64,000 nucleotides of DNA, taken from NCBI GenBank assembly GCA_023133295.1, contig JAGLWT010000116.1:13218-77217 (forward strand). Reading direction: 5' to 3'. Origin of the DNA: a bacterium. GTDB taxonomy: Bacteria > AUK180. The notes beneath the pieces are model-generated. The model was not told where the DNA came from and did no database searches. It worked only from the letters and a program-made list of their open reading frames with translations. The first letter of the stretch is position 1. Each line of letters begins with the position of its first letter. The position numbers were made by a program, and so were the translations under genes. Below, piece by piece: positions 29,647 through 54,663 of this stretch.

Positions 29647-29750
29647 ATTTAAATATTTAGTTTTCCATGATTCTGAACAACTCTACTCCTTCACATCGAG
29701 GAGAAGAGAAATAATTATTGTAAAGCAAAAGACTGCTTTTGCTATTTATT

Positions 29751-37352: not shown

Positions 37353-40253
37353 TCAGAATTCATGCTGAAGATCCGCGATCTCCATATCGCCCGAGGAATT
37401 GCCGGAAGTAAATCTCAGTAATTTGCCGTCACGGATCTTATATCTTACATAACCCACAGAGAGATCGTAGAAGTTAGTACCGGCCTTATCCTTCAGATAA
37501 CTAAAATCCTTCTGGAATTGAGCAAGTTCCTTGCCCTTGTTGAAATAATCAATATGGAAAAGCATGTCCATGGGCAATGCGAGATTCAGCATATCCTTGA
37601 GTTTGTAATTATACAGAAAGCGTGTGGGCATAAGCACCACATCGACCTTATCGAAATACTGCTTGTATGACATCAATTTATCCACTTCCCCCCTGTCCAG
37701 ATCAGCGGCTAATAAAAACTGTTTTCTTGAGATCTCAATACCCTTTTTCTTCAAGATATAATCGGCCTTAAGTACCATATTATCCTGAAAATAATCCTCT
37801 TTGCCGCTGCTTTCCGGGTATATAGCGTATATCTCAAACACATATTCACTGCTTCCCACTTTCTTACTCTCTTTCAGAATATAATCACCTGCCTTTACCA
37901 CTTCATAGGGTATTTTACTGGACAATAGGGTGTTGCTTACCTTTTGACATGTTTCATATCTGCTTTTTACCCAATAAGCCTGGCCTCTTTCAAGTAAATA
38001 CTCATTATCAGTAGATTTCAAGAAGTCTTCATATGTAGATGCGGATGCTTTTTGCACATTTGTGGGAAGATATACCTTTCCCACGGGATATTCTCTTAGT
38101 ATTGTAGTAACCGCCGAATTATTATCCTGAGAGTAATCCGTCAGGATCAGATCGTCTATGCGGTTGATACCGTAAGACATCAAAATGCTCATGACCACAC
38201 GGTCGGCCTCGTCCCATTCCCTTCTGTTATAGAGAGAATGTTTCCCCGCATTTATCAATACATTTCTCCCCGAAGGCGTTTTGATGAAAACGACATTGCC
38301 TTTGGAAAGGGAGAAGAAGGTTATGTCAACTTCATTATCCCTCTTTGTTGGTATCAGCAGAAGTATGGAGCCCAGAAGTACAATGGCGATTATGATCGCG
38401 GGCAGAAACTTAAATATACGCGCCCTCTTGTCGTGTTTCTGTTTGAATACCGTCAATTTATATTTATAGTCAAGCCATTTACTTTTGATATACGGCAGAT
38501 TGATAATGATAAGCAGCGCTATAAAATAGAATATCAGCCCGCCGAAGGTGAACTTCTTCACATATGGATATGGAAAAGTGGTCGAAAAGAAATGCGCGGA
38601 CTGTATGAAGAGCTTCAACAGCAGATAATTAGCGGCATTGATGAACAGTCCCATATAGATACCGACAACGGGTATCAGAGACAGAATTGCCGCGATCATC
38701 CCCAATTGAACATTGATACCGATGAGGGGTATGGCGATATAATTGGCGTACATACCCGCAATTGGATATCTGCCGAAATAATATGCGGAAAGCGGGATCA
38801 TCATTCCCAGCTGTATCGCGAATTGTGCCGATATAAAGGAGATCAGCCAAGGTGGCATCTTCCTGTAGGATGGAGCGGCAAGTTGCTTTTTTTCCTCAAA
38901 TTTATTGGATAAATACAAAAACACCCCGGAAGCGGCAAAAAATCCCCACAGAAATAGTGAATTAAAGAAATAACTCTTGAAGATGATGATCAGCGCGGTG
39001 AAGGAGGCGAAAACAAAGCAAGCCGCCCAAAAGGTATATCCGATCAGATACTTCTTGAAAATATCATCCAGAAACGGCGTGATAAGGACAAGAGACAGCA
39101 CCGCTCCAAACGATAGAGTAAAGGATGCCTCTCTCAATAGAAGCGGGTTCACAAATAATATCATAAGAGCGGCAACGGAAATACCCACCTCGATCGAGGT
39201 TCGCAGACCCTTGCCGGAAAGTACCCAGGCCATCAGCACGGCACTGTTCATTATTACAGCACGGAGAGTGGATGGCCGTCCGCCGGTGATTATCGCGAAG
39301 ATCACTAAAAAGAGTATTGTAATAACGGCATAAACTCTCCTCGGTACGCCTATCAATGAAAAGATCCCCACAAATAATATCATAAGGATCGTAACATGAA
39401 GCCCCGACACTGCCAGTACATGATTCACGCCCGCCCTTTTGAACTCATCCTTTATCTGATATCGGGCATCGGGCAAGAAGATCCCGTCCATGCCGTATCT
39501 CAGCCCCAGAGTAATACCGCCTAAAAATGCCGACTCCGGGTATTTCACCGTTCTTCGAATGGTCTTCAAGAACTTCTGCTTAATACCCAACGAGAAGGCT
39601 ACAAAGGGATTCTTCTTTGTCAGCTCATCAGGGGTGATGCGTGACGCATCCTTGAAATATGCTGTATAATATACTCCGGTGCTTTCCAGAAATTTTCTAT
39701 AATCAAAGCCGCCCGGATTCGTTGCTTTCTGCGGCCTCTTCAAGTCTGTCTCAAAGGTGATATAGTGGCCGTATGAGAGAAACTCCGGGTATTTGCCTTT
39801 CTTGAACGAATAATTAAGAAGGATCTTCCCCTTTTTTACTTCTTTCGAACGGGCGCCGTTGACCGAGATCTTCAGGGGCTTGATATAAACCCGCATCCTG
39901 TTCTCAAAATATTCGGGCTCTCTGTACACATATCCTTCGACCGTTGCGGATACGAGATCTTCTCCACCGGTAACGGTCAGTATATGCCCTTTTCTGTCAA
40001 TATTCAGAGCATTGTGCGTAAAGGCAAGGCCCAGTACAAATGGCAGAAGGTAAAAAGCCATCAGCATAGGTATCTTCTTGATATAACCCCAGCGCTTATA
40101 GCTATAAAAACCCACAGCTACAGCCGCGAGAAGAATCGCGGCAGAGAGGGCAAAAAAGATAAGCGGAGAGGCCAAAGGAAAGACGCCGAAACTGATGAGG
40201 ATGCCGAGGACAAAGAACAATGTAAAGAGATAGAGTTTATTTTCCCAATACAT
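37353..40253 (-). CDS. comEC: ComEC/Rec2-family DNA internalisation channel with N-terminal DUF4131-like region and a degenerate C-terminal metallo-beta-lactamase domain
   Basis: Competence domain signature AGVNHVLAVSGLHVTILMILFVGIF...RPSTLRAVIMNS. The C-terminal MBL-like fold has DDLILTDYSQDNNSAV where canonical ComEC has LVLTHxDxDHxGG, so the HxHxDH metal ligands are missing. Confidence 0.75.
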   Translation of the reverse strand: MYWENKLYLFTLFFVLGILISFGVFPLASPLIFFALSAAILLAAVAVGFYSYKRWGYIKKIPMLMAFYLLPFVLGLAFTHNALNIDRKGHILTVTGGEDLVSATVEGYVYREPEYFENRMRVYIKPLKISVNGARSKEVKKGKILLNYSFKKGKYPEFLSYGHYITFETDLKRPQKATNPGGFDYRKFLESTGVYYTAYFKDASRITPDELTKKNPFVAFSLGIKQKFLKTIRRTVKYPESAFLGGITLGLRYGMDGIFLPDARYQIKDEFKRAGVNHVLAVSGLHVTILMILFVGIFSLIGVPRRVYAVITILFLVIFAIITGGRPSTLRAVIMNSAVLMAWVLSGKGLRTSIEVGISVAALMILFVNPLLLREASFTLSFGAVLSLVLITPFLDDIFKKYLIGYTFWAACFVFASFTALIIIFKSYFFNSLFLWGFFAASGVFLYLSNKFEEKKQLAAPSYRKMPPWLISFISAQFAIQLGMMIPLSAYYFGRYPIAGMYANYIAIPLIGINVQLGMIAAILSLIPVVGIYMGLFINAANYLLLKLFIQSAHFFSTTFPYPYVKKFTFGGLIFYFIALLIIINLPYIKSKWLDYKYKLTVFKQKHDKRARIFKFLPAIIIAIVLLGSILLLIPTKRDNEVDITFFSLSKGNVVFIKTPSGRNVLINAGKHSLYNRREWDEADRVVMSILMSYGINRIDDLILTDYSQDNNSAVTTILREYPVGKVYLPTNVQKASASTYEDFLKSTDNEYLLERGQAYWVKSRYETCQKVSNTLLSSKIPYEVVKAGDYILKESKKVGSSEYVFEIYAIYPESSGKEDYFQDNMVLKADYILKKKGIEISRKQFLLAADLDRGEVDKLMSYKQYFDKVDVVLMPTRFLYNYKLKDMLNLALPMDMLFHIDYFNKGKELAQFQKDFSYLKDKAGTNFYDLSVGYVRYKIRDGKLLRFTSGNSSGDMEIADLQHEF

Positions 40254-40402
40254 TATTTTTCTTCCAAAAACCCGTAATACGATTCATTGGACCTGAGATT
40301 TCCCTCGATCGTATAATTCTTATCAAAGGCCAGAACCAGGATCGCGGCAATCGCAATGATAATTATCCCTATTAAAATAAAGGCCTTCTTTCCTTTTTTC
40401 AT
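40253..40402 (-). CDS. Small single-pass membrane protein (49 aa), not in the supplied ORF track
   Basis: The reverse complement reads MKKGKKAFILIGIIIIAIAAILVLAFDKNYTIEGNLRSNESYYGFLEEK. Its ATG overlaps the stop of the 663-aa gene as TAATG. Its TAA overlaps the ComEC ATG as TAATG. It fills the only gap in the operon exactly. Confidence 0.5.
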   Translation of the reverse strand: MKKGKKAFILIGIIIIAIAAILVLAFDKNYTIEGNLRSNESYYGFLEEK

Positions 40403-42393
40403 TAACTTCTCCAGTCAAGATAGAATTTGAAAGCCCTCTGCGGAACCGTATTATCAGCCCTTGCCGAATTATCCTGAATATAATACCTTCTTTTGTACCC
40501 TATTTTCAGCTTCAGATTCTTCCACCAGAGTTTTCTGCTGTAATCAACCGACCATTCACGGTATTCCTCAGAGGTGGATGAGTCCGACTTCCTGTAGATA
40601 TTATTATCCGTGGATTTAAACGAGAACAGGAAGTTACCCAGGGCGGGTTTCCAATTCGCCTTCAGCTGATAGGATGCATTGGCCTTTCTCTGAGGCAGAG
40701 AATGTTCCATATAGGTATTGAAGCGGTAAATGCCTGTCAGGCGCAATTTCTCGGACAAGTTGTAATTAAAAGTCACATAAGTCCTTGTGCTTTTGTCCGA
40801 TTCGGAATAATCCGTAATATATGAATCATTCAAGTTCCTTGCTACATCATTATCTTTATACCGCTGCGTCACCGCCATATCAACAAGCGGCGTTATCGGA
40901 TATTGAAATTTTATCGAGCCGTCGAAATTGGTCTGAAGAGTTGAATAATACCTCCAGATATCCGCCTTGGGAGTGATCTCCAATTTTCCCAATTTTAAAA
41001 GCGCATCGAATTTAATACCCCTTTCGTTCTGGGCGGAAAGCTCCGCAGGAGATTCATATGTGGCGAATGTATATGAATAGGGATTTTCAAATTCCCTGTG
41101 GAAATCCCTGTAAATAAAATTGATCCGCGCGGTTTTCTTTTTCATGGTCATCTTCAATAAGAAGCCGTGAGCGCCTGATTCCAATTGCCCGAATTCCGCC
41201 TGAATAGCCGACTTTTTAAAAGGAGTCCACCGCATATTCAATCCCCATACCCATGCATCGAACATGCCTTCAGAGTAATTATTCGGCTTGTAGAGGTCAG
41301 AGGCATAGATCTCCTTATTGTGGTAAACGGTCATTCCGATAAAATTGTCCTCTCCGCCGATGCGCATATGCCCGCCGAAAATGGTCTTGTTAACATAATT
41401 CGGAATGGAAAGAGCGATCGTATCTTCGTCAAAATCGCTCTCTGAATACGCCGATTCATCCGCGCTGAAATCGGCCGAACTGACCAGAAGATGTGAATAC
41501 TGATAGAGCTTGTCCTGTATCTGTGACGCGAAGATGAATATCTCCGCCGGTCCCAGCACCGTTCGCATACCGGCACCAAGGAGGTTCAGATTGAAATCGG
41601 AAGTAACATCACTGGAACGGTCGCCCTTGAAGCCGTACAGATTCTTGTTATCGGATTCATTAAAGACCACGCCAAGACCGAAGCCCGCCATATAATTTCC
41701 CGTGATCAATTGGAAGTTCTTTGTATTCCAGTTTATAAATACCTTAGGCAGAGGCCATACCGTTTTCTTCGGGTCAACGATAACTTCGCCCGGCTGAAGG
41801 AAGATCTCGCCGTTTTCATCATAGGTAACAGGCCCGTCATATTCCTCAAAGCTGTATGTGGCGTATCTGCGTTCCTGAAGAATTCCTATATCCAATACCT
41901 TTCCGAGACGGAAGCGGTATTTGAACTGTACATAAGGCGTCTCTTCTGATTTGGTCGTGGAAGAAACCTCGTCCCTGAATTTAAAGTTGAGGTCGGTTTT
42001 CCTTTTCAATACCTTCTTACCCTTGACCTTCTTTATCTTTACCGGGGGAATGATGCGCATAAATCCCTCAACAAAACTGAAGTCTGTACGCCCGAGGATC
42101 CTTTTGAGGGGCTTGTCATCTTTAAATGGCCGGTTCTTGATGATCTCATCAGCGATCTCAAGGGTTACCTTGGGAAGCCGCAGCAGCTCACTCTTAGGAG
42201 CGCTATTGACCTCTATAGGATTTGAGTAAAGTTCCCAAAGCATAATATACTGCTCTTGATCGATATCTCCGGACTCGTACAGATCGGCGATCTCGTCTTC
42301 CGTAGATATGGGTATCGAAAGATCATAATCCTGAGCAAATGCAAAAGAGGCCAAAAACAAAACGATCAGAAATAGTATTCTACCTTTCATCAT
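40402..42393 (-). CDS. Secreted or outer-membrane protein with an N-terminal ComEA-like helix-hairpin-helix motif followed by a large beta-rich (putative beta-barrel) domain
   Basis: Signal peptide MMKGRILFLIVLFLASFAFA. Then IEVNSAPKSELLRLPKVTLEIADEIIKNRPF, a ComEA-type HhH (NxNxA..eLxxLPGIg.xxAxxIixxR). Then about 550 aa of alternating beta-strand-like sequence rich in Tyr/Phe/Asn. Its start overlaps the stop of the upstream gene as ATGA. Confidence 0.5.
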   Translation of the reverse strand: MMKGRILFLIVLFLASFAFAQDYDLSIPISTEDEIADLYESGDIDQEQYIMLWELYSNPIEVNSAPKSELLRLPKVTLEIADEIIKNRPFKDDKPLKRILGRTDFSFVEGFMRIIPPVKIKKVKGKKVLKRKTDLNFKFRDEVSSTTKSEETPYVQFKYRFRLGKVLDIGILQERRYATYSFEEYDGPVTYDENGEIFLQPGEVIVDPKKTVWPLPKVFINWNTKNFQLITGNYMAGFGLGVVFNESDNKNLYGFKGDRSSDVTSDFNLNLLGAGMRTVLGPAEIFIFASQIQDKLYQYSHLLVSSADFSADESAYSESDFDEDTIALSIPNYVNKTIFGGHMRIGGEDNFIGMTVYHNKEIYASDLYKPNNYSEGMFDAWVWGLNMRWTPFKKSAIQAEFGQLESGAHGFLLKMTMKKKTARINFIYRDFHREFENPYSYTFATYESPAELSAQNERGIKFDALLKLGKLEITPKADIWRYYSTLQTNFDGSIKFQYPITPLVDMAVTQRYKDNDVARNLNDSYITDYSESDKSTRTYVTFNYNLSEKLRLTGIYRFNTYMEHSLPQRKANASYQLKANWKPALGNFLFSFKSTDNNIYRKSDSSTSEEYREWSVDYSRKLWWKNLKLKIGYKRRYYIQDNSARADNTVPQRAFKFYLDWRS

Positions 42394-43868
42394 TCACCTC
42401 CCTGGCCATTATCAACAGCGGGATCGTATTCTCCCGCTTTTATCATATTTCTCATATTCTCAAAGGTCTTGGGACCTATTCTGGGAACATTCATAATATC
42501 CTCTATGTTCTTAAATCCGCCGTTTTGCTTCCTGTAGGAAAGAATGTTCGCCGCTGTCTTCACTCCTACGCGCGGAAGTTTCTGCAGCTCCGCACTGTCC
42601 GCGGAGTTGATATCTATTAACGGTCCGCTGTAAGAGGTTTTCGAGGAGGTGGAAGTGGCCGAGGAACTGCGTGACGGCACAATTTGAGTCGATGACTCAT
42701 ATTTACTGCCAACGGTAATATGGGACCGTATTTTTTCAACGGTCTTAACGCCTATTCTAGAGACATTCTGCAGGTCTTCCACTCTTCTGAACGGCCCGTT
42801 CACCTTCCGGTATTCCACTATACGCTCTGCTGTCTTGCTGCCTATGCCCGGGATCGCGGAAAGCTCCTCCGCATTTGCAAGATTAATATTTATCCTGCCG
42901 TTGATCACCGAGAGTTCGGGTTTGGATTCTTTGTTTCCGAGTCCAAAGGCAAAGGTATGTGTGGCGCCCAGCTCCGGATGTACCTTCAAAGCATATGAAA
43001 CTGCCATTCCGCCGCCGTAAATTCCGAGGCCGGCAGAATAGGAAAAACGCTCCGAGTGAAGATATTCAATGCCGCCAAAGAGAGCAAAGTTATCTGTCAT
43101 ATCGTACTTGATACCAAAATGATATTCGGAGTAAAGGTCCCGTTTAGCCGCGAAATTTTCCAGATATGCGTCATAGTCGGCAAAATCACCGACCGCTTCT
43201 TCTATCTCCGCTTCCTCGGCATCGGTATAACTCCCGAGTCCGTAAGTATGTTTCAGAAACGATGCGGGAATATTCGCGATAAGGTTGAAATAGATATTTA
43301 ATTGGGTAAAAGGGGTATATGAAACCCCTATGCCGACATCCCTCGCCATGTATTCCTGGCCGATATACGGTGCTGAAACATTTCTGAATCTTGCTCCGAA
43401 ATAAAGATCGTTATTTACAAAGAGCACCATTCCCATATCCAGGGCAAGTGTGGATGCCGAACCGATCTCGTCGATAACGACACTCATATACTTCCCCTTG
43501 AAACCAAGCGCGAAATTGGAGCCCACATTGAATGCGCCGGCAAATTGTATTTGCTGTTCCGCATACAGCCATGAGCCGAATTTTACAAGGTTCAGGCCCA
43601 TTGTCATCGAGCCGAAGCGCTTGATATAATTTGCTGAGGTGTTTGCCAGTTCATCCATGCCGTATAGCCGGGATGTGGTAAAATTCAAATGGACATTCTC
43701 CAGATAGGCCAGCATGGCGGGATTATTGTATATCGCCTCAGGTCCCATAAGCACCAGATTGGCTCCACCGGTAGCAAGGTTGAGGGGCATATTCCCCTCA
43801 AATTCAAAGGCAGTCCATCCATTGATGGCTAGAATGATCGAGAAAACTACTATTATTATTTTTTTCAT
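42390..43868 (-). CDS. Fusion protein: FadL/PorV-like outer-membrane beta-barrel (NPA motif) plus two C-terminal ComEA-type HhH DNA-binding domains
   Basis: Signal peptide. GGANLVLMGPEAIYNNPAMLAYLEN N-terminal hatch-like motif, paralogous to the proteins at 13832..14782 and 46947..47831. About 320 aa of barrel-like sequence. Then ININLANAEELSAIPGIGSKTAERIVEYRKVNGPFRRVEDLQNVSRIGVKTVEKI and IDINSADSAELQKLPRVGVKTAANILSYRKQNGGFKNIEDIMNVPRIGPKTFENM, two full ComEA HhH domains separated by a Ser-rich linker. Confidence 0.6.
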   Translation of the reverse strand: MKKIIIVVFSIILAINGWTAFEFEGNMPLNLATGGANLVLMGPEAIYNNPAMLAYLENVHLNFTTSRLYGMDELANTSANYIKRFGSMTMGLNLVKFGSWLYAEQQIQFAGAFNVGSNFALGFKGKYMSVVIDEIGSASTLALDMGMVLFVNNDLYFGARFRNVSAPYIGQEYMARDVGIGVSYTPFTQLNIYFNLIANIPASFLKHTYGLGSYTDAEEAEIEEAVGDFADYDAYLENFAAKRDLYSEYHFGIKYDMTDNFALFGGIEYLHSERFSYSAGLGIYGGGMAVSYALKVHPELGATHTFAFGLGNKESKPELSVINGRININLANAEELSAIPGIGSKTAERIVEYRKVNGPFRRVEDLQNVSRIGVKTVEKIRSHITVGSKYESSTQIVPSRSSSATSTSSKTSYSGPLIDINSADSAELQKLPRVGVKTAANILSYRKQNGGFKNIEDIMNVPRIGPKTFENMRNMIKAGEYDPAVDNGQGGE

Positions 43869-43877
43869 GGCAGCCCC

Positions 43878-46800
43878 CTACATCCTTTTCCCAATGGCAA
43901 CGACTTCTTTCTTATAAATAGATTTCGTTTCATTTCTCAATTCGATATATAGAATATACACACCCATTGGCAGCGGCCGGTTGCGATTATCATCGCCGAT
44001 CCATTTCACAGAGAAAGGCCCCGGCGGAAGAACTGTCTTTTCCGATAATGTCTTTACTTCTCTTCCGGCAATGTCATATACACGCAGCGTGAGCACTCCC
44101 TCGGAAACAACATGCAGGGAGATCTCGGTATATAATCTATTCGGATCGCTGCCGTCATTAACAAAGCTCCTCGGGGAGATCTCGATCTGCGTAATATTGC
44201 CGGCGGGTATCTCCGTTTCATCGCAAGGCCTTCCCATCGTGGGGTTTTCCGTGATCGTCCAATCGGCAAGCGTGTTCGTATCCGTAAATTCCGCATCACG
44301 CGTTATAGATGATTCTTCCTCCACATTATTTGATCTGATGGCATTGGTAGCGGCATAGATCCAATCGTAAATATATCCGCTGTCCGGCTGCTCGCCAAGA
44401 GGATAATCGGGATACTTCGCCATATTGGGGAAAAATTTATAGATCTCTCCGTCCCAATGATATGCTCCTAATTTGGGATCGGATGAAAAATATACCTCAT
44501 AGAAATCGCTGTATTCAATATAAGAGATATCTATCAATTCTGAAACGACCCATGTCGACGCGGCGGGAACCACCTGTCCGTCGGCTATAAGATCGCCGTT
44601 CTCGTCAAAGGGGAATATTTGTTCTTCTGAATTTCTTTCAGCCCATACAACGGCATCTTTGATATTTCCGGAAAAATCCCGGAACTCAAGGTTCTCATCC
44701 GTGCTGGAAAGCGAGAGTTTCGAAAGATAGATCGTTAATATTCCGTCACTTCCCGCGGTAAGTTCGCTGTCATTTTCATTTCCTACGGTGATAATGACAA
44801 ATTCACCGGTTTTCAAGGTCGTTCCGGGCTGAATTATCGCAATTACGCTGTCCGTCAGCATGAAACAACCACCGACATCAACACCTGCTCCGGAATTGCC
44901 GTCATCCTTGCAATAAAGCTCTATCCAATCCGGAAATCCTGAGGGTGAGTAAAAATAAACCTCTGAGATCACGATATCCGTTTCGGCGGGCAATGTATCG
45001 ATCGGATGGCCGTAACCCGGCGTAACGACCAGGGTATTCTTCCAGTCAACTTTATCATTGGTATCCGTATTGTAATAATCTCTGACAATAGAGCCCTTTG
45101 AAAAATCCGATGAAACACAGTCGATCTCTTCGCCGTCAACGGGAGAGCCGTAGCCTATGTTCCATTGGCCGACAGCAAAAGCTTCCTCAAAGTCATCATC
45201 GGACAGGGAGCCGCCCTGATCCGCCCAGCAGACAAGGTCTATCAATTCGCCATTCGGCGTAAATATGCCCATTTGCTCGTCCGAATCGGTTATCCCCGTA
45301 TCGGCGGTCGTCACAAAATACGATGCCTTGGTCAGGGGAAGTTTCCAGTCATCCGCATTATCATATATCAATAATCCGTAATCTCCTGTGCGGAAGATAC
45401 CGGATGAAAGTTTTTTATCGGCTTTTTCGTTCAGGTCCGTAATGGAGGCGCGGGTGCCGTAAGTGGATATCGAATCAAGATCATCAAGATAAAATCCTTT
45501 AAGGTCGATACCGTTTCCATTATTACCGTCATCGATCATGTAAAACTCCACAAAATCCTCGCCATATGTCCCGATAGAATCTACTTCGGTAATTAGGATC
45601 ACAGGGTCCTTTACCGTTATGGACTCTAAATAGTCCGAAACAGAATTTCCGGTGTCCGAGATCGCATTTGCTTTTTGATCCGCTCCCGTGACCCAGAAAC
45701 CTATGATCGAGAGATTGGGTATATCCACGGTAGAACCCTTGGTAAGGTCAGCTCCGCCTTTATAAACCAGGGTATTTCCCCATATAATGCCGTCTTCGCT
45801 GCCGTCAGCGCCGGAGCTGTAGGCGAGTGTTACCGTGCCGGAATCTACGAATACTCCAGTAGAGGTCTTGATCTCATACCATAAACTCAAGGTAGATGTA
45901 TCTTCAATACCGCCCTCTTCTGAAAGTATCAGCTCAAACGATGTGGCTGAAAGAGAAACACGGGGGAAATCTCCCGAAGGAGACATGGAAACAGGAGAGG
46001 GGCCCGTAATATCTATCGGCAAGACCGTAAGGTCCGCGGAAACAATACCATCCACTCCTGTATTTTCCGGTGTTATTTCAATAACTCCCGAAGACAGGCA
46101 TCCGCCGAAATCAACCGTACCCTCACCATTGATCAAGGTCAGCGCGATCGTGTCAGTGCCTCCCGAAAAATGTCCGGTTCCGGCAGGAGAAGCGGATATC
46201 GTAATATCTAGTGTCGGAGACGAGGTATAGACGGAGTAGTTCTCATCAAGAAGCTTAACCGTGACCGTCGTGGTCTCCGGCGTACCCCCGGTAACTTCGA
46301 TCCTTGTGGGGTATACAAAAGCACGGAGATTGATCGAGGACTCGGTAGGCCCGACCGAATTGGGGTGGCGCGGCGTGCCGTAGATAGGGTTGCCCAGATA
46401 ATCGGTGCCGTATATGGTAATAAGATCATTATCCGCCCAATTGGAAGAATCGTTGCCGTCCTTTCCGAGAATGATCTTTTCCATGGAAACGCCGCCCGAC
46501 TGGCCGGCGAACCATCCATCTGAGCAGTCGACTTGATCAATGAGATTAGCGGAGTTATCATACAGGCGGAGGTTTTCTCCGTCATTTGAAAGTTTGCTGT
46601 AGCCAAGGTCTTCAGAATCGCTTTCGATATCGGCGATCGCCTGTTTTACCGGCTCGGTACTGCTTCTGTATTCTATCAGATAATATGCTCCCGATCTGAT
46701 CGTGGTTGTGTTAGCAGTGGTAAGGTCAACAATTATTCCACCGCTATCCCAAATATACCATCCGGTAAGATCGATATCGGAACCCGTGGGATTGTAAAGC

Positions 46801-46940
46801 TCGATCCATTCGTACCCGCTCTGGGCAATGGTCCCGCTCCATGAAAGCTCTGAAATAACAACATCACCGCTTGAAGCGGAATGTATCGCAAGGGGCAGTA
46901 TCGAAAGGATGATCAACAATGCTAATATTTTTTTCATCAT
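43878..46940 (-). CDS. Large secreted multi-domain protein (1020 aa) with at least three lamin-tail-domain (LTD) repeats and a T9SS C-terminal sorting domain
   Basis: Signal peptide. LTD signatures: GDVVISELSWSG...GYEWIELYNPTGSDIDLTGWYIWD; PVILITEVDSIGTYGEDFVEFYMIDDGNNGNGIDLKGFYLDD; DIVISEVYFYSPSGFPDWIELYCKDDGNSGAGVDVGGCFML. C-terminus LTLRVYDIAGREVKTL...GVYILYIEL...KKEVVAIGKRM matches a Por_Secre_tail. Confidence 0.65.
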   Translation of the reverse strand: MMKKILALLIILSILPLAIHSASSGDVVISELSWSGTIAQSGYEWIELYNPTGSDIDLTGWYIWDSGGIIVDLTTANTTTIRSGAYYLIEYRSSTEPVKQAIADIESDSEDLGYSKLSNDGENLRLYDNSANLIDQVDCSDGWFAGQSGGVSMEKIILGKDGNDSSNWADNDLITIYGTDYLGNPIYGTPRHPNSVGPTESSINLRAFVYPTRIEVTGGTPETTTVTVKLLDENYSVYTSSPTLDITISASPAGTGHFSGGTDTIALTLINGEGTVDFGGCLSSGVIEITPENTGVDGIVSADLTVLPIDITGPSPVSMSPSGDFPRVSLSATSFELILSEEGGIEDTSTLSLWYEIKTSTGVFVDSGTVTLAYSSGADGSEDGIIWGNTLVYKGGADLTKGSTVDIPNLSIIGFWVTGADQKANAISDTGNSVSDYLESITVKDPVILITEVDSIGTYGEDFVEFYMIDDGNNGNGIDLKGFYLDDLDSISTYGTRASITDLNEKADKKLSSGIFRTGDYGLLIYDNADDWKLPLTKASYFVTTADTGITDSDEQMGIFTPNGELIDLVCWADQGGSLSDDDFEEAFAVGQWNIGYGSPVDGEEIDCVSSDFSKGSIVRDYYNTDTNDKVDWKNTLVVTPGYGHPIDTLPAETDIVISEVYFYSPSGFPDWIELYCKDDGNSGAGVDVGGCFMLTDSVIAIIQPGTTLKTGEFVIITVGNENDSELTAGSDGILTIYLSKLSLSSTDENLEFRDFSGNIKDAVVWAERNSEEQIFPFDENGDLIADGQVVPAASTWVVSELIDISYIEYSDFYEVYFSSDPKLGAYHWDGEIYKFFPNMAKYPDYPLGEQPDSGYIYDWIYAATNAIRSNNVEEESSITRDAEFTDTNTLADWTITENPTMGRPCDETEIPAGNITQIEISPRSFVNDGSDPNRLYTEISLHVVSEGVLTLRVYDIAGREVKTLSEKTVLPPGPFSVKWIGDDNRNRPLPMGVYILYIELRNETKSIYKKEVVAIGKRM

Positions 46941-46946
46941 ATACTC

Positions 46947-47831
46947 CTACCACCGATACCCAAGGCCGGCTGATACCGTTCCCGGTAAAAGCGATCCGAA
47001 CCCGTATGAGACATCGATCTCCAGCTTGTTCAATCCGATCTGAACACCGAAGAGAATATTTCTTGTGGTATCATTCAATGCATCACTCGCGCCGAATCTC
47101 AATTTTATCCATTTAGTAATATTAAAAGCTAAGCCCGAATTCAAGATCATTGAAGATTCCCTGATAACCGCCTGTGTCAAGAGGGTCAGCGCCATGCCTC
47201 CGTCACCCATTTGCCGTTTATATCGAAAGCCGATACCTCCGGATATAGAAGGGAACGCGCCTTCCTGTTCAAATTCCAGCTTCGTACCCCAATTATTTAC
47301 AAAAAGTCCTATCAGAAGCTTTTTCATCTTAAAGGCAAGGCCGAGGTCAATTAAAAAAGAGTCCGCTGTATATGTATCGATACGGCTGAAAAGGTATTTT
47401 ATATTTACACCGGCATATGTATTCTGGCCGATGGCATCGCCGAAAGAAAGCACAAGTCCAAGGTCGGAAGAATGGAATTGCCCGGTAACCGTGCCTATCT
47501 CATCCCGGGAATCCTGATATCCCCAATTGCCGTAAATGGCAGAGATCCCGACATTGCCGAAATTCTCAAGATACACCGCCGTTGATATTAAAGAGACATC
47601 CATCTCCTCATAATATTTTCTGTAGCTGGTTTTAAAATAATTCCAGCCCGAGATAGGCATCAATGCCGGATTGACCAGTATGGAACCAAAATCATCAATA
47701 TCAACGCCGAGAACGGACCCGCTGCCGCGTGCTCCCGAAGTCGGGTCAATATTAAAAACATTGGAAGAGCCCATTGCGGCAATGCAAACCGAGATCAAGA
47801 GAACCATTATGAATATTACAGATCTCTTCAT
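46947..47831 (-). CDS. Outer-membrane beta-barrel protein, FadL/PorV-like (NPA motif). Putative partner of the adjacent LTD cargo proteins
   Basis: Signal peptide MKRSVIFIMVLLISVCIAA. GSILVNPALMPISG NPA motif. Beta-strand alternation. C-terminal ...GLGYRW. Paralog of the proteins at 13832..14782 and the N-terminal domain at 42390..43868. Confidence 0.5.
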   Translation of the reverse strand: MKRSVIFIMVLLISVCIAAMGSSNVFNIDPTSGARGSGSVLGVDIDDFGSILVNPALMPISGWNYFKTSYRKYYEEMDVSLISTAVYLENFGNVGISAIYGNWGYQDSRDEIGTVTGQFHSSDLGLVLSFGDAIGQNTYAGVNIKYLFSRIDTYTADSFLIDLGLAFKMKKLLIGLFVNNWGTKLEFEQEGAFPSISGGIGFRYKRQMGDGGMALTLLTQAVIRESSMILNSGLAFNITKWIKLRFGASDALNDTTRNILFGVQIGLNKLEIDVSYGFGSLLPGTVSAGLGYRW

Positions 47832-47834
47832 GAT

Positions 47835-50800
47835 CTACCTCACCACCGAGAACTTAACCATCGCGGTGAAGCTATCCGCTTTTACCAGGCCGAAATATAT
47901 CCCCGCGGGGATCTTTCTCCCGTATCTGTCCTTCAAATCCCAACTTATCTGATGGAATCCCGCAGAAAGCACAGCATCGTGTATCTCAATCACCTTTCTC
48001 GCATCCAATGTCAAGATCGTCAGCGTAACATTGGATTCTTCCAGTATGTTTATCTCAAATGTTATCGTGTCGACATCCGGAGTTGCCGGATTCGGATATG
48101 GAGTATATATATTATTCCCGTCAAATGAGGTGTCAATGAAATACTCCAGCAGGTCAACACATGTGAATTCAACTATATGCTTTCCCGCCTCGGAGGCCAG
48201 GGTCAATGTGAATGACGCCGAGCCGTCGGTGCCGGTCCGGGCGGAGGATGGGGCGATAGACGCACCCAAAGGAGTGTCGATAAGAGAGGTGGCGACATCC
48301 GCACCATACAATCCCAATCCGGTATCAGAAGTGATATAGACCAAGATATCCCGATCCTTCCCGGGAGCGGTATGCGGATCTTCCGCGGGGTCAAATGTCA
48401 TTACCGCGGGAGAAAGGACATCAAATTCAGGCGAATTCAGTTCAACAAGGTCTGTACCGTTCTCTAAAATGCTTATCCCGAATTCGTATATTCCTTCCGC
48501 ATCAGGGAAATCATAACCATTGAAATCTATGCTCACCGAGCTTGCCGCGGTTATCCCGGGAATGGTAATGGTGGAGCCGGAAACCGTATAGGCGACCGTA
48601 TTGGAAGCATCGACGGTTACCGTCAGATTTGCCAATGTGGGTTGAGTAAAACTTGAATGAACAACAATATACAGATCATCGTCTCCATCCAGCTTGGGAT
48701 AACCTACCGTATAATCAATACCCAGATCTCCATTGCCGCCTTGGCAAAGCGGGACATTGGGAGTTTTTGAAATGCCATAAGAGCCGGAAACCGCAGAATC
48801 CACATTGCCGAAAGGCGAGGAATTGCCTGATTCATCAAGGGCCTTCACCGAAATATAATATGTTGTGCCGGCAGGCAGCATCGTCAGTGCATGCTCCTCT
48901 GTCTGAGTCGGCAGAAGCGGTGTTATCCCCGAAGTATCGTATTTATCCGCAGCGATAAAGTCAGCGTCATCAGAGATCGGGGCGGTGGAATAAGCGATCT
49001 CATAACTATCACATTGAGATACGCCAAGTCCGTTCTCGCCCACTGCGGTAAAGTTTATTCTGATACCGCCGATCGTAGGATGGGAATATGCGCTAAGGTC
49101 ATTGATCACCGATGGCGATCGATTATCGATGGTATTGAAAGAGAAGAGATAATCTCCACCGGGAGCGCCGTCATTATCTCCGTCAAGGCCGTTGCCTGAT
49201 ATATCCATCGCTCTAGAGTAAACGGTAATATCATATGAGGTGTCTTCTGTAAGCGGAGCCGTAAGGGTCATCGTTAATGTCTCATTGCCGGCATCCCAGG
49301 AAAGCGTATATGCTACAGCCGGCACTATCTCAAGCGATAAATCCACCGATACGGTATTCATTTCCTCTGAGAATGTGATGATAATATCGGTCACTGTATC
49401 TATATTCACTCCCGAATCGATCGGAGATGTGTATAGAACGGTCGGTGAGGCATAATCTCCACAGCTTGTACTGTAATTTGAGTTTTCAGCACAGGGTGTG
49501 GCATTAAGCGGATTATTGTCGGCATCAAGGCCGTTTATTGTAATTCCGTCATTGGAACCCCAGTTACCGGCGACCGAACCGCCGACACATGGATCTATTC
49601 TCTCCATTGTGAAATAATTAGGGGATCCCGTACCTGCGTACCAACCGGCACTACAATCGACCAGATCAACTGTCACATTGGATGAATTCTTTAAAGTTAT
49701 CGTCACACCGGTGTTGCTCAAACTGAGAGATGTATCCACAAGTCCGCCCGCAACATCATTCACGGTATCCTCGGAATTTTCAATAAGGTAATATCCGAAA
49801 GCGGGAATAGTTCCCGAAAGCGTTTCCGTCGAGAACCCGACTCCCTGAACATACCAGCCGGTAAGGTCGATCCCCTCACCTGTCGGATTGTACAGCTCTA
49901 TCCACTCATCGGAAGATGAGTGCAATGTACCGCCGAAGGCGACTTCATTTACAACAACCTTTCCGGTCATTGACTCATATACTTCGATCAAGGGAGATGC
50001 TCCGATCGCCGAAAGCGTCCCTGTGCCTTTTGATCTTACGGTATAGGTATATGTTCCGAGCGTGTCGCACATAGCACCGGGCGAACCCGAAGACATATCT
50101 CCATAAATGAATACTAATGTATTTCCGGTATCGAGCGTAGTAATATCCGCTATTATCTCCCAACCAGTGGTCTCATTTCCCGTAATGGAAGCGATCGATG
50201 CCGCGGCATCGCCGGAAAGGGAAAGATATCCTTCCGATGCAGGAGCTCCGTCCTGCGGCTGTGACCAATTCGCGGGAATATATAGCGCGACCTGCCCGCC
50301 TGCCATATCAAGCGATGCGGTATAGATCACATTTACGCTCTGATGATTATCCTTGAGAATATTAGAGGGATATGCGACCGCCGTACCGGTACCGTCACCG
50401 TATTGCGATGTCTGAAAACTGAATGTATATGTATCTCCGCCCGAATCATCCACTGAAGCGGAGTCAGCCAGCGTATTGCCCGCTACATCCGCAACTATGG
50501 TCTTATCGATCTCAATATAATATGTCGCCCCGAATGACAGTGTATTATGTGTGATCGTAAGTGTTTGTGTAGTATTTGACCATGCATATCCTTCTCCTCC
50601 GGGTGAGGGTGATATAATTATCCCCAAAGTGGAGGTATCCGCCATTTCCTCGTCAAAATCTATTGTGATATCGGCCAAGGGGTTGACCGCCGACGCGCCG
50701 TTAACCGGGGCCGTCGCGGTTATGGTCGGAGCTTGCGTATCCGCAGCTGCACCGCCGCAGGTCGAAACCATACAGGAATTGTCCTGACCTGGAGTACCGT

Positions 50801-51371
50801 GAATGGCATTTGAACCAGAATCCGCTCCATTTATGGTAACTCCATCATTTGTAGCCCAATTGGAACACACATTTCCGGGCGAGCACGGGTCTATCCTTTC
50901 CATCGTATATTCTCCGGTAGTATTTCCTGCACACCATGCCCCGCTATTGTCATCAGCAACATCGATCACATTGCCGGTAGCGTCCTGGCCATCGTATAAG
51001 ATAATACTGTCTCCGCCGGCGTTCATTCCTATCGTAAGGTCCCAGATCTCAATTGTAGCTCCCGAAGTGAATACTCCGGCATCATTTGCGTATATCAGAT
51101 AGCCATTGGCGGGAATGATAGTGGTATTGTTTCCGTCGGCTGCTGAAATATTCAGGACAACCCCGGTATCAGCGCCATAGATCGACCAAGCGGCTATATC
51201 GATCGGTGCATCTGTGGTATTATAGAACTCTATCCATTCATCACTTGCCGAATCCGTGGTTCCGTCATAGGCGATCTCATTGATGACAACATCACCGGGA
51301 GTCGCCGCTTCCGCGATCTGCATAGATATCAAAAGCAAGGCGGCAATAAATATGATCGTTATTTTCTTCAT
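47835..51371 (-). CDS. Large secreted protein (1178 aa) with two lamin-tail-domain (LTD) modules, Ig-like/beta-rich repeats and a T9SS C-terminal sorting domain
   Basis: Signal peptide MKKITIIFIAALLLISMQIAEA. LTD signatures: GDVVINEIAYDGTTDSASDEWIEFYNTTDAPIDIAAWSIYG and GKVVVNEVAFGGTLHSSSDEWIELYNPTGEGIDLTGWYVQG. C-terminus VTLTILTLDARKVIEIH...ISWDL...GIYFGLVKAD...KFSVVR matches a Por_Secre_tail. Confidence 0.65.
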   Translation of the reverse strand: MKKITIIFIAALLLISMQIAEAATPGDVVINEIAYDGTTDSASDEWIEFYNTTDAPIDIAAWSIYGADTGVVLNISAADGNNTTIIPANGYLIYANDAGVFTSGATIEIWDLTIGMNAGGDSIILYDGQDATGNVIDVADDNSGAWCAGNTTGEYTMERIDPCSPGNVCSNWATNDGVTINGADSGSNAIHGTPGQDNSCMVSTCGGAAADTQAPTITATAPVNGASAVNPLADITIDFDEEMADTSTLGIIISPSPGGEGYAWSNTTQTLTITHNTLSFGATYYIEIDKTIVADVAGNTLADSASVDDSGGDTYTFSFQTSQYGDGTGTAVAYPSNILKDNHQSVNVIYTASLDMAGGQVALYIPANWSQPQDGAPASEGYLSLSGDAAASIASITGNETTGWEIIADITTLDTGNTLVFIYGDMSSGSPGAMCDTLGTYTYTVRSKGTGTLSAIGASPLIEVYESMTGKVVVNEVAFGGTLHSSSDEWIELYNPTGEGIDLTGWYVQGVGFSTETLSGTIPAFGYYLIENSEDTVNDVAGGLVDTSLSLSNTGVTITLKNSSNVTVDLVDCSAGWYAGTGSPNYFTMERIDPCVGGSVAGNWGSNDGITINGLDADNNPLNATPCAENSNYSTSCGDYASPTVLYTSPIDSGVNIDTVTDIIITFSEEMNTVSVDLSLEIVPAVAYTLSWDAGNETLTMTLTAPLTEDTSYDITVYSRAMDISGNGLDGDNDGAPGGDYLFSFNTIDNRSPSVINDLSAYSHPTIGGIRINFTAVGENGLGVSQCDSYEIAYSTAPISDDADFIAADKYDTSGITPLLPTQTEEHALTMLPAGTTYYISVKALDESGNSSPFGNVDSAVSGSYGISKTPNVPLCQGGNGDLGIDYTVGYPKLDGDDDLYIVVHSSFTQPTLANLTVTVDASNTVAYTVSGSTITIPGITAASSVSIDFNGYDFPDAEGIYEFGISILENGTDLVELNSPEFDVLSPAVMTFDPAEDPHTAPGKDRDILVYITSDTGLGLYGADVATSLIDTPLGASIAPSSARTGTDGSASFTLTLASEAGKHIVEFTCVDLLEYFIDTSFDGNNIYTPYPNPATPDVDTITFEINILEESNVTLTILTLDARKVIEIHDAVLSAGFHQISWDLKDRYGRKIPAGIYFGLVKADSFTAMVKFSVVR

Positions 51372-51595
51372 ATATTTCCTCTCGAACCCTCATTGAGTTC
51401 ATCTTTTATTTTTTTCATTTTCTCCAGACGGGCCTTCGTCTCGTCCGCGTCAATGGAAATGTCAACATTCAGAACATCTCCTTCCTTAACCCCTTGCGGA
51501 AGATGCGCGATGGGGATGAGCATTTCTCCGCCACGGTCAAGGACCACAACGGCGAGCTCTTCTTCAAATCTGTCTATAACTGCTGTGAGAATCAT
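51368..51595 (-). CDS. Small DUF3006-like protein (75 aa)
   Basis: MILTAVIDRFEEELAVVVLDRGGEMLIPIAHLPQGVKEGDVLNVDI resembles the DUF3006 consensus (IDRFEGdfAVlel.dG..l.vP...LP.gakEGDVL). Its start overlaps the stop of the upstream LTD gene by 4 nt. Confidence 0.4.
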   Translation of the reverse strand: MILTAVIDRFEEELAVVVLDRGGEMLIPIAHLPQGVKEGDVLNVDISIDADETKARLEKMKKIKDELNEGSRGNI

Positions 51596-51849
51596 AGGTC
51601 TCCTCCATATTTATTTATTATTTTGCGTAGTTTGGGATTGCGCGCCTGCGGCGCAGGCTGTGAACTCAAGAGAAACATCGATAATGTTGTCTTTCTCATA
51701 TATTTTCAGTTAAATTCTAACCTTTTTGAGAATGAAATGCAAATAAATATGGTTCTTTATTATCCTTATAGTGTTCTGACAGACTATATAAGGCAATGCA
51801 AGACAAAGAAATACTAAATACCAAAAACGATTTCACTTACAGCGGAAAT

Positions 51850-52260
51850 ATTGGTAGAATGAATTATCACAGGGACAGAGATTGACCTGTCCTCCGTCAT
51901 TATCGTTATTGGGCGTGTCACCTTGGAAACCCCGATTACATCGGGGACCCGATAACCCATCTTTCTTGCTGTTTGTCAGCTTGAGTGTAACGAAAGATCC
52001 ATCTTTATTTCCTTCTCTCCAGCTTTTAACCTTGAACATTTGAACTTTTGAACAATCCTATCCGTTTCACACGAAAACATTCTCCACACATCTTTGATTG
52101 TCATTCCAGCGAAAGCGGGAATCCATCTGATATTTGCTTCTTGTGTTTTCCCCACTATTCGTTGTTCACTATACTTAAGCCTATCAACCATTTCTACACT
52201 ATTCATTATATTCTGTCATCCTGAGCTTCTCCGCGAAGGATCCTTCCCCCCGGAAGTTCG
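51850..52260. repeat. Repeat-rich intergenic island: reverse-complement copies of modules D and B, palindromic 'gtcattccagcgaaagcgggaatcc', 'gtcatcctgagcttctccgcgaaggatcc', and module G
   Basis: About 51866-51896 is the reverse complement of 'atgacggaggacaggtcaa(g/t)c(c/t)ctgtccctg' (compare 3768-3800). About 51971-52003 is the reverse complement of 301-333. The 52097-52124 unit is an inverted repeat (gtcattcc...gggaatcc). About 52150-52210 matches 10283-10312. Confidence 0.6.
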
Positions 52261-52509: not shown

Positions 52510-54663
52510 CTATCTGTTGTTGATGATGCCAACAGTTTCCTCAATGGAAAAGGTCCCATCTTTCATTATTCGGAGTCTGCTTTCAGGTCCTGATCTCTCT
52601 TTATTAAAAATACCAATTACAACCTTGTATTTGCCCTTTGGGGCATCTTTTGGAAATATGAAGGCTAGATTTTCTCTGATGAATCCCCTTCCGGAAATGA
52701 TTTGGTTTGAGAGAAAATCCATATGGGGTTCATGGTCAATATTATACCGGTATGCCTTTTCATTATAGTCCATTTCTATATGTACCATGATAGAAAAAGC
52801 TCTATCGATAACCTCTTTGGGTTCCCAGTAGAAGTCAAAGTCGAACATTCCATTGGAATCATTGTAGCTATGTTTAAATCCCCGGAAAAGGACTTTTCCT
52901 TCAAAATCCAGCGTAGTATCTTCAATGCTGTCAGGAAGTTCAGACAGGATCGCATCACCTTCAGTGAAGAGCTTTCCTTTGTTGACTTTGTATAATGTGA
53001 ATGATAACTCAAATTCTTTCAATAAATCCCGTATAATTTCTTTGCTGTTGCGAATCTTCTTATATGACGGAAGGTCAAACCATGTATCAAGATTGTCAGC
53101 TGAATATTTCCCCATGTATGTCAGAAAGTCTGTTTCGTCGTTCTCCCTGTCAAGAAAATCGAGTTTTTCATTAACAAGCCACCAGCCAGTGTTCGCCCGA
53201 TTAAACAGTAAATAGTCGGGATTTGTTTTCATGAGATACCGCTTCAAGTCATCTATATCCATACCATGGACATAAGTCACTTCCTCTCCCTCAGCATAAA
53301 AGATGATCTCAGGAGGAAACGCCATTATTTTGGAATGTTCCGGAATATTTGATCTAATATCCAGGCCGATGTTTTTTGCCATCATCCCCAGCTTGAGATA
53401 ATACTCGAAGTTGTTTGCCTTGGGGGGGATATTGAACAGAGAGAAAAGGAGAAATACAGCCATAGTAATAACCGATATCAGCTTGGAACGTTCAGATAAA
53501 AGAAATATCACATATGCCTGAATCCCTGCTATCAAAGGAAGAAGGTATATCAAATATCGGGTAGCTAGTGACTTCCATGGCACAAAGAATGGGATGGTCA
53601 TCGTAAAAAGCATTACAGGGGTAAGCAGTTTCAGCAAAGGACTCTTCTTGTATATGATAATCAGAAAACCGAAGATCAGAAGCAGTATTTTCAGTATATT
53701 GTTGTTGAAGAGCTTTGGAATTACCCAGCCAAACATCTGACTCAGGTTGTTTATGTATCTAAGTGAGAGGTTTTTTACATCTGAAAGGGTAAGTTCTCTC
53801 CGATTATGCATGAGGTGCATCTTGGATATGTTCTGGTCATCATCGTATTCATAGAGGGTTTCTGTGTAAGTGGAATCCTTGAAGAACCTCCTCAAAGCGT
53901 GGGTTTTGCCGCTCAAGGTCCATCGTCCGGTTTTCTTATGTAAGAAGTTTATATATGGCAAGGAAAAAATAGTAAAGATTAACATATACAATAAAACGAC
54001 CGGTAGGTATCTCTTAAGACTGACTTTGCCCAACCCTTTCGTCAGAAAAATGAATATGGGGATAATAAAGAGTAGAAAAAAACCTTCAACCCTGGTCATA
54101 TAAGCAAGCGAAGACGCTATCCCCGAAAAGAAAATAAGCAGGACGCCTTTTCTGCAGTCAAGGCTCATGACGGTAAACATCAATGAAAGAAAGAATAAAA
54201 ACGCAAAGACAGTGCTTTCCCCGTTCTGAATTGAATATTCGATCAGGATCGGATCAAATGTTAGAAGTACTACGAAAAGGATCGCGGCGGGCCGGTTTAG
54301 GAGTTTTTTCAAAATTGCATAAGCAGGAATAAACACAGCACTACCGAAAATGATCGCGGGGATCTTCGCTGCAAGAATCGGGATATCGGTGATTTTTAAC
54401 ATGACGGCCAGGAGGAAGGGGAAAACAGGAGGTTTAAATACATTGAAGAGAGCTCCATTGCCATCTAGCCAGTTGGTCGCGATTTGATACTTCACAATAT
54501 CGTCAAAATTGGTAAAGAAAGTGAAATAGTCAATGAGAGACAGCCTGATCGCCACATTTACGAATAGTACCGCCAGAAGAAAATACTTATCGGCCTTGAG
54601 GGGTTTATGGCTAAAAATGAACGAGTTTACTGGCTTAAAAATTCCCATAATGATTCTATCCAT
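52510..54663 (-). CDS. Multi-TM GT-C-like (ArnT/PMT-type) putative glycosyltransferase with a C-terminal soluble domain (native-composition paralog)
   Basis: About 12 TM helices. The first-loop motif NVFKPPVFPFLLAV compares with HPPL/KPPL in the other GT-C-like proteins. The C-terminal about 250 aa are beta-rich and soluble. The likely start is the ATG at 54661-54663 (MDRIIMGIFKP) with AGGAG upstream; the track ORF extends to 54756. Confidence 0.4.
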   Translation of the reverse strand: MDRIIMGIFKPVNSFIFSHKPLKADKYFLLAVLFVNVAIRLSLIDYFTFFTNFDDIVKYQIATNWLDGNGALFNVFKPPVFPFLLAVMLKITDIPILAAKIPAIIFGSAVFIPAYAILKKLLNRPAAILFVVLLTFDPILIEYSIQNGESTVFAFLFFLSLMFTVMSLDCRKGVLLIFFSGIASSLAYMTRVEGFFLLFIIPIFIFLTKGLGKVSLKRYLPVVLLYMLIFTIFSLPYINFLHKKTGRWTLSGKTHALRRFFKDSTYTETLYEYDDDQNISKMHLMHNRRELTLSDVKNLSLRYINNLSQMFGWVIPKLFNNNILKILLLIFGFLIIIYKKSPLLKLLTPVMLFTMTIPFFVPWKSLATRYLIYLLPLIAGIQAYVIFLLSERSKLISVITMAVFLLFSLFNIPPKANNFEYYLKLGMMAKNIGLDIRSNIPEHSKIMAFPPEIIFYAEGEEVTYVHGMDIDDLKRYLMKTNPDYLLFNRANTGWWLVNEKLDFLDRENDETDFLTYMGKYSADNLDTWFDLPSYKKIRNSKEIIRDLLKEFELSFTLYKVNKGKLFTEGDAILSELPDSIEDTTLDFEGKVLFRGFKHSYNDSNGMFDFDFYWEPKEVIDRAFSIMVHIEMDYNEKAYRYNIDHEPHMDFLSNQIISGRGFIRENLAFIFPKDAPKGKYKVVIGIFNKERSGPESRLRIMKDGTFSIEETVGIINNR

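Follow-up and report, generated by a model that had tools for sequence, protein, structure and literature searches.

This study examined a 64,000-nt stretch of contig JAGLWT010000116.1 from a bacterium of the GTDB lineage AUK180 (hereafter the window), in which eight tightly packed open reading frames (ORFs) on the minus strand, at positions 37353-51595, form an operon that ends in comEC. The operon consists of two cargo-plus-barrel pairs, each a large protein with lamin-tail domains (LTD) and a small barrel of the PorV/PorQ type, followed by a large predicted barrel and ComEC; ComEA-type helix-hairpin-helix (HhH) domains are fused to the second small barrel and to the large one. We lean towards the view that these genes encode a machinery for DNA uptake without a pilus, which binds double-stranded DNA on the cell surface, takes it across the outer membrane and passes it on to ComEC. 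A DNA-related role of the operon is well supported by comparative genomics and by fold evidence.

Organisation and conservation of the operon

The initial annotation of the window described a co-oriented string of eight genes with defined domain contents. All eight ORFs are present, and scans with Pfam and NCBIfam profiles at curated cut-offs confirmed most of the domain calls, including the DUF3006 label of the first gene. From the upstream region to comEC, the features are as follows:

51596..51867, minus strand: 272-nt upstream region, a probable promoter and leader, conserved along with the operon
51371..51595, minus strand: DUF3006 protein, 75 aa (PF11213, E 1e-20)
47838..51371, minus strand: LTD protein 1 (LTD1), 1178 aa (LTD 107.5 bits against a cut-off of 34.3; Big_5 87.7 bits)
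46950..47831, minus strand: PorV/PorQ-like barrel 1, 294 aa (NF033709 PorV_fam, E 1.2e-21)
43881..46940, minus strand: LTD protein 2 (LTD2), 1020 aa (LTD 80.7 bits against the same cut-off)
42393..43868, minus strand: barrel-HhH fusion, 492 aa (14-strand barrel and two ComEA-type HhH domains)
40405..42393, minus strand: HhH domain and large barrel, 663 aa (HHH_3, E 9e-5; about 24 predicted strands)
40256..40402, minus strand: 49-aa protein with a single transmembrane helix (conserved motif, without a family match)
37356..40253, minus strand: ComEC, 966 aa (channel domain Competence PF03772, 132.9 bits against a cut-off of 23; OB-fold DUF4131, 83.5 bits against 31.6)

The close coupling claimed for this string, with short overlaps and gaps of 10 nt or less, was borne out by the sequence, in which overlaps measure 1 or 4 nt and gaps at most 9 nt. 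The DUF3006/LTD1 and barrel-HhH/large-barrel junctions are both ATGA, a 4-nt overlap; gaps of 3, 6 and 9 nt separate LTD1 from barrel 1, barrel 1 from LTD2, and LTD2 from the barrel-HhH gene; and the 49-aa gene is joined to its neighbours on both sides by TAATG, a 1-nt overlap. Promoter-like and terminator-like sites within the block were no commoner than in shuffled sequence, and an Rfam scan of the window returned a single tRNA and nothing else. A signal-peptide-like start was found in all proteins of the operon except DUF3006 and ComEC, with a membrane helix in its place in the 49-aa protein.

The arrangement is not a product of chance. The same gene order recurs in related genomes at 97%, 51%, 45% and about 30% identity, with differing flanks, and DUF3006 is also the first gene in the loci L001-L004. 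The 663-aa gene occurs in at least four GTDB species (representatives), and a word-indexed search returned eight full-length homologues of the 492-aa fusion. The more divergent loci are:

L001, 234-kb contig, 51% identity: the complete eight-gene order, with RNase III/radical-SAM genes on one side and a methyltransferase on the other, flanks unrelated to those of the window
L007, 9-kb contig, 51% identity: partial LTD1, barrel 1, LTD2, barrel-HhH, large barrel, 48-aa protein and the start of ComEC
L005, 45% identity: the core of barrel-HhH, HhH-large-barrel, 48-aa protein and ComEC
L048, about 30% identity (663-aa protein): the core as in L005, and before it the final part of a protein with a domain like a C-terminal sorting domain (CTD)
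L006, JGI contig, 26% identity: PorV-like/HhH fusion adjoining an 816-aa HhH protein

The contigs of L005 and L048 both begin inside the large gene directly upstream of the barrel-HhH gene, and only the L048 fragment matches FlgD_ig. In L003, at 92% nucleotide identity, similarity extends over exactly 51867..37353 of the window, ending at the ComEC stop codon. Since this synteny covers the operon together with its 272-nt upstream region and breaks on both sides, the operon is best regarded as one conserved unit in a strain-variable, glycan-related region.

The flanks of L003 differ from those of the window and include a methyltransferase and other genes. In the window, a 748-aa PMT_2-type glycosyltransferase lies upstream (52510-54756) and a Wzy_C/TPR protein lies downstream (34785-37310).

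HhH-bearing barrels and their partners

The 492-aa protein is composed of a signal peptide, a barrel (residues ~20-310) and two HhH domains (324-385 and 420-480) with a Ser/Thr-rich linker between them. As had been proposed, the HhH segments are of the ComEA type: HHH_3 (PF12836) matches twice (E 1.4e-45), and TIGR00426 reaches 123.9 bits against a cut-off of 53.1. The full-length comE model TIGR01259 scores 124.3 bits, below its cut-off of 152. ComEA itself is small and either soluble or anchored in the inner membrane; here, the HhH domains are fused to barrels, at the C-terminus of a 14-strand barrel in this protein and at the N-terminus of a barrel of about 24 strands in the 663-aa protein. 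In bacterial outer-membrane barrels with an even number of strands, both termini lie on the periplasmic side; the three HhH domains are therefore most likely located in the periplasm, tethered at the inner face of the outer membrane. The initial proposal of a surface-displayed capture apparatus is therefore modified in this respect, although its DNA-related core was strengthened by the distant loci described below. To our knowledge, no PorV/PorQ protein with two C-terminal ComEA HhH domains has been described.

The 663-aa protein carries a signal peptide, an N-terminal ComEA-like HhH domain (residues ~58-101) and about 24 predicted strands that extend to its C-terminus. Its HhH domain, also predicted at the outset, is weakly matched in the window copy (E 9e-5) and present in all five orthologues (best E 6e-9). 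A TonB-dependent-receptor identity of this barrel was considered and rejected, Plug and TonB_dep_Rec being without matches. An exhaustive HMMER search with the profile of the 663-aa protein returned 1335 proteins at E<=1e-3, of which 258 reached E<=1e-10; among the shorter matches, many are only multi-HhH proteins, and dozens of proteins of 650-830 aa match most of the profile. An alignment of 20 members showed a common layout, in which the signal peptide is followed by an acidic segment that is conserved, a single HhH domain and a long beta-rich body with motifs such as GSYxAGFGxGLTFD, R.Y...FDNPHSRG and RDRDExG. The C-terminal Phe typical of outer-membrane barrels is found in 15 of the 20. 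These similarities place the 663-aa protein in a wider unnamed family that reaches distant high-GC lineages, including at least one member of the Myxococcota. The barrel is proposed to be an outer-membrane DNA conduit.

The gene neighbourhoods of these distant relatives link the HhH-barrel to LTD proteins and nucleases. In a metagenome-assembled genome of the Myxococcota, the gene for a 167-aa protein of the phospholipase D (PLD) family precedes the barrel gene, whose stop codon overlaps the start codon of the next gene, for a 609-aa LTD protein. A metagenome scan with a narrower alignment (A4) added 31 further loci, whose neighbouring genes were taken from crude calls of plus-strand ORFs, the real-looking ones being chosen by eye. 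Among neighbours chosen in this way, LTD was found in 12/12 of the large ones and nucleases in 8/8 of the small upstream ones (7 PLDc_2 and 1 SNase). The PLD protein of L012, the only one scanned against NCBIfam, has its best match in NucT (E 9e-13, sub-threshold), and the SNase neighbour in L039 has a sub-threshold match to NucI-like proteins. These nucleases have lipoprotein signal peptides, and the neighbouring LTD proteins have either MYXO-CTERM-like tails or lipoboxes. The triad of nuclease, HhH-barrel and LTD protein is found in L012, L018, L020, L022-L025 and L039, where ComEC is not adjacent. In distant lineages, the adjoining HhH-barrel and LTD genes often have an overlapping start codon. 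Across lineages, the nuclease type, the LTD anchor and the presence of ComEC vary, and the pair of HhH-barrel and LTD protein is constant. Since nuclease types and anchors are exchanged while the pair stays, the pair may represent a conserved DNA-handling module at the outer membrane. In another branch of the family (L014/L015, L030 and L033), the genes upstream of the barrel encode a HEAT-repeat protein (1180-1520 aa, with the C-terminus ...GVEGVL) and a ThiS-like protein (76-91 aa), and the downstream gene encodes a protein of 373-793 aa that has no annotation.

The two small barrels had initially been called FadL-like. They do have the 14-strand FadL-type fold, but by sequence they probably belong with the PorV/PorQ proteins of the type IX secretion system (T9SS) rather than with the FadL transporters. 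PorV/PorQ was favoured over FadL/Toluene_X because the sequence profiles match PorV_fam; Toluene_X gave a weak match in one distant homologue only, and membership in that family was rejected. Barrel 1, with a signal peptide and the C-terminus ...GYRW, scores 77.6 bits on PorV_fam and E 2e-23 on PorQ, and its orthologues score 83-87 bits on PorV_fam, whose cut-off is 90. In the barrel of the 492-aa protein, PorV_fam was undetected in the window copy and found in orthologues (E 4e-10, 4.5e-7 and 4e-18). A hidden Markov model of this barrel matches barrel 1 (E 1e-11) and also a PorV-family protein of the window that passes the cut-off (E 4e-10).

T9SS proteins attach to barrels of the PorV/PorQ and PorP/SprF-like types. 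In the operon, each LTD gene is directly followed by a PorV-like barrel gene, and barrel 1 is proposed to be the partner or anchor of LTD1. The operon differs from the known T9SS barrels in that its small barrels score under the PorV_fam cut-off and in that one of them bears the two ComEA HhH domains. A second pair lies at 13835-18035 on the minus strand, where a protein of 1081 aa (14793-18035; no Pfam family), whose tail is CTD-like, is followed by a 316-aa PorV/PorQ protein (13835-14782) that passes PorV_fam at 115 bits against 90. At 789-3455 on the plus strand are two LVIVD-repeat (choice-of-anchor-B-like) proteins. The second of these (1542-3452) ends in a T9SS type-A CTD that resembles the CTD of PorZ (E 2e-14) and is the sole one in the window above the TIGR04183 cut-off (23.7 against 23). 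From the second pair and the LVIVD CTD, the organism appears to employ T9SS-type sorting and to provide its large secreted proteins with PorV-like barrels of their own.

LTD1 has a signal peptide, two LTD, two Big_5 domains, an fn3-like segment and, at the C-terminus, a beta-sandwich that resembles a T9SS type-A CTD. LTD2 likewise begins with a signal peptide; its N-terminal LTD is joined by one or more additional LTD-like domains, and it ends in a FlgD_ig/CTD-like domain. A segment scan added a third LTD-like segment (E 3e-4). Whole-protein and segment scans of both proteins found no nuclease domain, and a search for PDB relatives of either returned none.

ComEC is recognisable by its channel and OB-fold domains and by its similarity to the solved ComEC structure 30bt (E 5e-47); on TIGR00361, it scores 159.6 bits, under the cut-off of 190. 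Lactamase_B, which the initial annotation had listed among the profiles to run, was not found by the Pfam scan. The C-terminal domain (residues ~640-966, window 37356-38330) nevertheless aligns with the metallo-beta-lactamase (MBL) domains of 30bt and 9ic4, with E 1.5e-10 to residues 534-636 of 30bt. Here, the segment STHPDADHIGG of the solved protein reads LTDYSQDNNSA (THPDADH to TDYSQDN), and the metal-binding motif H-x-D-x-D-H is degenerate in the window copy and in 4/4 aligned orthologues. Since the motif loss is common to all four, the MBL-like domain looks like a retained pseudo-enzyme, and ComEC is probably unable to serve as a nuclease in the usual way. With the nuclease motif gone, strand degradation would therefore have to fall to another factor.

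The 49-aa protein, initially described as a transmembrane protein, has a single hydrophobic helix. It is kept between the large barrel and ComEC in every relative examined (L001, L005, L007 and L048; 48-50 aa), with the conserved motif KNYTI..NL.SN..YYEFL, and Pfam and NCBIfam gave zero family matches. It is proposed to be an inner-membrane accessory of ComEC. The DUF3006 protein has no signal peptide and shows a weak S1_2/OB-like match (E 7e-4). A word-indexed search found just two homologues, a search for a PDB relative found none, and a literature search returned no paper on it.

Proposed route of DNA and alternative readings

A route for DNA can be proposed from these parts. The LTD proteins would be exported, probably by a T9SS, and retained at the cell surface, each by the PorV/PorQ-like barrel that the next gene encodes. 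There, they would bind DNA as receptors, and the DNA would enter through the 663-aa barrel of about 24 strands. In the periplasm, the three tethered ComEA-type HhH domains would bind the incoming DNA, rectify its diffusion and stop it from sliding back, a ratchet function that the soluble ComEA of Vibrio cholerae reportedly performs. ComEC, perhaps with the 49-aa membrane protein, would then move the DNA over the inner membrane, for transformation or for feeding.

A broader proposal, which we hold only tentatively, is that the 663-aa protein founds a widespread family of outer-membrane DNA translocons, each with a signal peptide, a periplasmic ComEA-like HhH domain and a barrel of about 24 strands, and each working with a surface-anchored LTD receptor. 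The output would vary, with a lipoprotein nuclease serving nutrition in some cases and ComEC serving import in others, and the whole would be a third route that is both pilus- and TonB-independent. In this lineage, PorV-type barrels would have been recruited as trans-envelope adaptors, with LTD outside and ComEA inside.

Several observations weigh against the proposed uptake route. The LTD domains of the putative T9SS cargo proteins are confirmed, but the sorting-domain signals are sub-threshold in both: LTD1 scores 20.3 bits on TIGR04183 (E 4e-4), under the cut-off of 23, and the tail of LTD2 is only FlgD_ig-like (E 2.6e-4) and PorU-CTD-like (E 2.7e-3). No T9SS core genes were seen in the 64-kb window. 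The two tails give weak alignments to the CTD of the LVIVD protein (LTD1: blastp E 8e-6), and T9SS display of the LTD proteins is plausible, if weakly evidenced. Their suggested role as surface DNA receptors takes DNA binding by bacterial LTD as an assumption. The structure model of the 663-aa protein was built from five input sequences and is of poor quality. The 12/12 and 8/8 counts in the distant loci are not unbiased frequencies, because the neighbour sets were self-chosen from crude ORF calls, and the family members in L014, L016, L030, L033 and L050 have neither LTD nor nuclease neighbours: in the first four, the neighbours are a very large HEAT-repeat protein and a ThiS-like gene, and the L050 gene is by itself. 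In addition, the operon encodes no nuclease and the MBL motif of ComEC is degenerate, so that the removal of one strand is left unexplained.

Four other explanations were considered. The large barrel may not be the conduit, in which case DNA would cross by a type IV pilus and secretin encoded elsewhere and the operon would supply tethered ComEA equivalents and ComEC. This is the canonical Gram-negative arrangement of PilQ and pilus (PMC8459023), and the barrel might merely anchor its HhH domain in the membrane. However, some 530 residues and about 24 strands make a costly anchor, the barrel body is conserved in distant lineages beside surface LTD proteins and lipoprotein nucleases, and zero pilus genes were found in the annotated +/-10-kb flanks of the distant loci or in the 64-kb window. 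We consider this explanation unlikely, if still worth some weight. A different possibility, which we judge improbable, is that two unrelated neighbours were taken for one system, namely T9SS-exported LTD cargo with its PorV-like barrels and a separate comEA-like/comEC cluster, the LTD proteins not serving uptake at all. The cargo and barrel at 13835-18035 indeed form such a pair without DNA-related genes, LTD occurs in non-DNA proteins as well, and the two LTD proteins have no nuclease or recognised DNA-binding domain beyond LTD. On the other hand, the partner barrel of LTD2 is itself fused to two ComEA HhH domains, the LTD genes remain upstream of the HhH barrels at 51% identity (L001 and L007), and distant HhH-barrels again adjoin LTD proteins and nucleases.

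It is similarly doubtful that the LTD proteins and HhH barrels bind extracellular DNA of the biofilm matrix to anchor or remodel it, with ComEC merely co-regulated. LTD and nucleases have been tied to biofilm extracellular DNA in haloarchaea (PMC5118699) and, for ddbF, in Bacteroides (PMC12478041), and the large, multi-domain LTD proteins have Ig-like repeats as in adhesins; yet the HhH domains are periplasmic by standard barrel topology, where there is no matrix DNA, and the tight, conserved TAATG coupling to ComEC suggests import. Export is the least credible alternative and, in our estimate, very improbable: HhH domains would guide DNA outward to become extracellular DNA, or another polymer would be exported. 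Direction is not readable from sequence, and large barrels are often exporters (LptD, PelB and ushers), but ComEC is known solely as an importer, the NucT-like and SNase nucleases of the distant loci are typical of extracellular-DNA scavenging, and the operon has no ATPase or export motor.

Related systems and other features of the window

Pilus-independent uptake as proposed here would share with the canonical competence of Vibrio cholerae and Neisseria the ComEA-type HhH domains, a ComEC with OB and channel domains, and the presumed logic of DNA binding in the periplasm followed by passage through ComEC. It differs in that the HhH domains are carried on outer-membrane barrels rather than being soluble or inner-membrane-anchored, that the MBL motif is lost, that LTD proteins and PorV-like barrels are added, and that pilus genes are missing from the window. 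The initial remark that no pilin or secretin is present holds for the operon and for the other ORFs of the 64-kb window, where Pfam and NCBIfam scans found no pilin, PilQ secretin or PilB/PilT ATPase families.

The suggestion that no such system had been described needs a qualification. Literature searches, whose coverage is incomplete, found no paper on this combination of parts, but pilus-independent uptake by a barrel with a surface partner is known in the Bacteroidota. Riemerella anatipestifer needs ComEC, the SusC-like RA0C_RS04915, a DUF5689 surface protein and an HhH protein (PMC8459023), and the related ddbABCDEF locus of Bacteroides serves DNA degradation and uptake (PMC12478041). These systems (RA0C_RS04915/04920/02645 in Riemerella) resemble the operon in their pilus-free pairing of a barrel with a surface partner and in their HhH protein or proteins; some versions include nucleases, and the one for transformation includes ComEC. 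They differ in using a SusC-like TonB-dependent transporter (Plug, CarboxypepD_reg) and DUF5689, homologues of which are not encoded here: Plug, TonB_dep_Rec, CarboxypepD_reg and DUF5689 were all undetected in the operon. Because none of their families was detected, the likeness appears to be one of logic and not of descent.

The LTD-containing nucleases Vibrio Xds, Shewanella ExeM/NucH and Haloferax Hvo_1477 are likewise secreted LTD proteins that handle extracellular DNA. In the operon, however, the LTD proteins are without a catalytic domain, and the loci of its distant relatives encode the nuclease separately, as a small lipoprotein. In Helicobacter pylori, NucT is an outer-membrane-associated nuclease of the PLD family involved in transformation and purine salvage. 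The PLD protein of L012 is the sub-threshold match to it; the window operon has no such gene. In haloarchaea, LTD has been linked to the metabolism of extracellular DNA and to MBL proteins that resemble ComEC, and the LTD-MBL 'ComA' proteins connect LTD with ComEC-type functions by genome or domain (PMC5118699).

How DNA crosses the outer membrane without a pilus or secretin is largely an open question. The exceptions are Helicobacter, in which H. pylori uses the ComB type IV secretion system for uptake, and the recently recognised SusC-like transporter of the Bacteroidota. The operon suggests a third solution from different parts, and yields as candidates a large barrel with its own ComEA-like domain, ComEA-fused PorV barrels and LTD surface receptors. 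Nucleases accompany the barrel-LTD pair in other phyla, so that the module may be relevant to horizontal gene transfer and to the scavenging of DNA among many uncultivated environmental bacteria.

Other parts of the window showed features of their own. At about 20000-30000 lies a low-GC island (27-31% GC, against ~42-47% around it), which holds ORFs of 601, 650 and 773 aa without family matches among glycan-related genes and is probably a horizontally acquired surface-polysaccharide cluster. On the plus strand, 5955-8012 encodes a 685-aa coiled-coil protein with low-level SMC/Rad50-like matches; this region has a GC skew of +0.21 and an AT skew of +0.36, and the neighbouring 2-kb bins are negative. 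A radical-SAM protein resembling spore photoproduct lyase (PF20903) adjoins MurJ at 56464-57315, and the small ORFs of the window include a PilZ-domain protein and two bactofilins.

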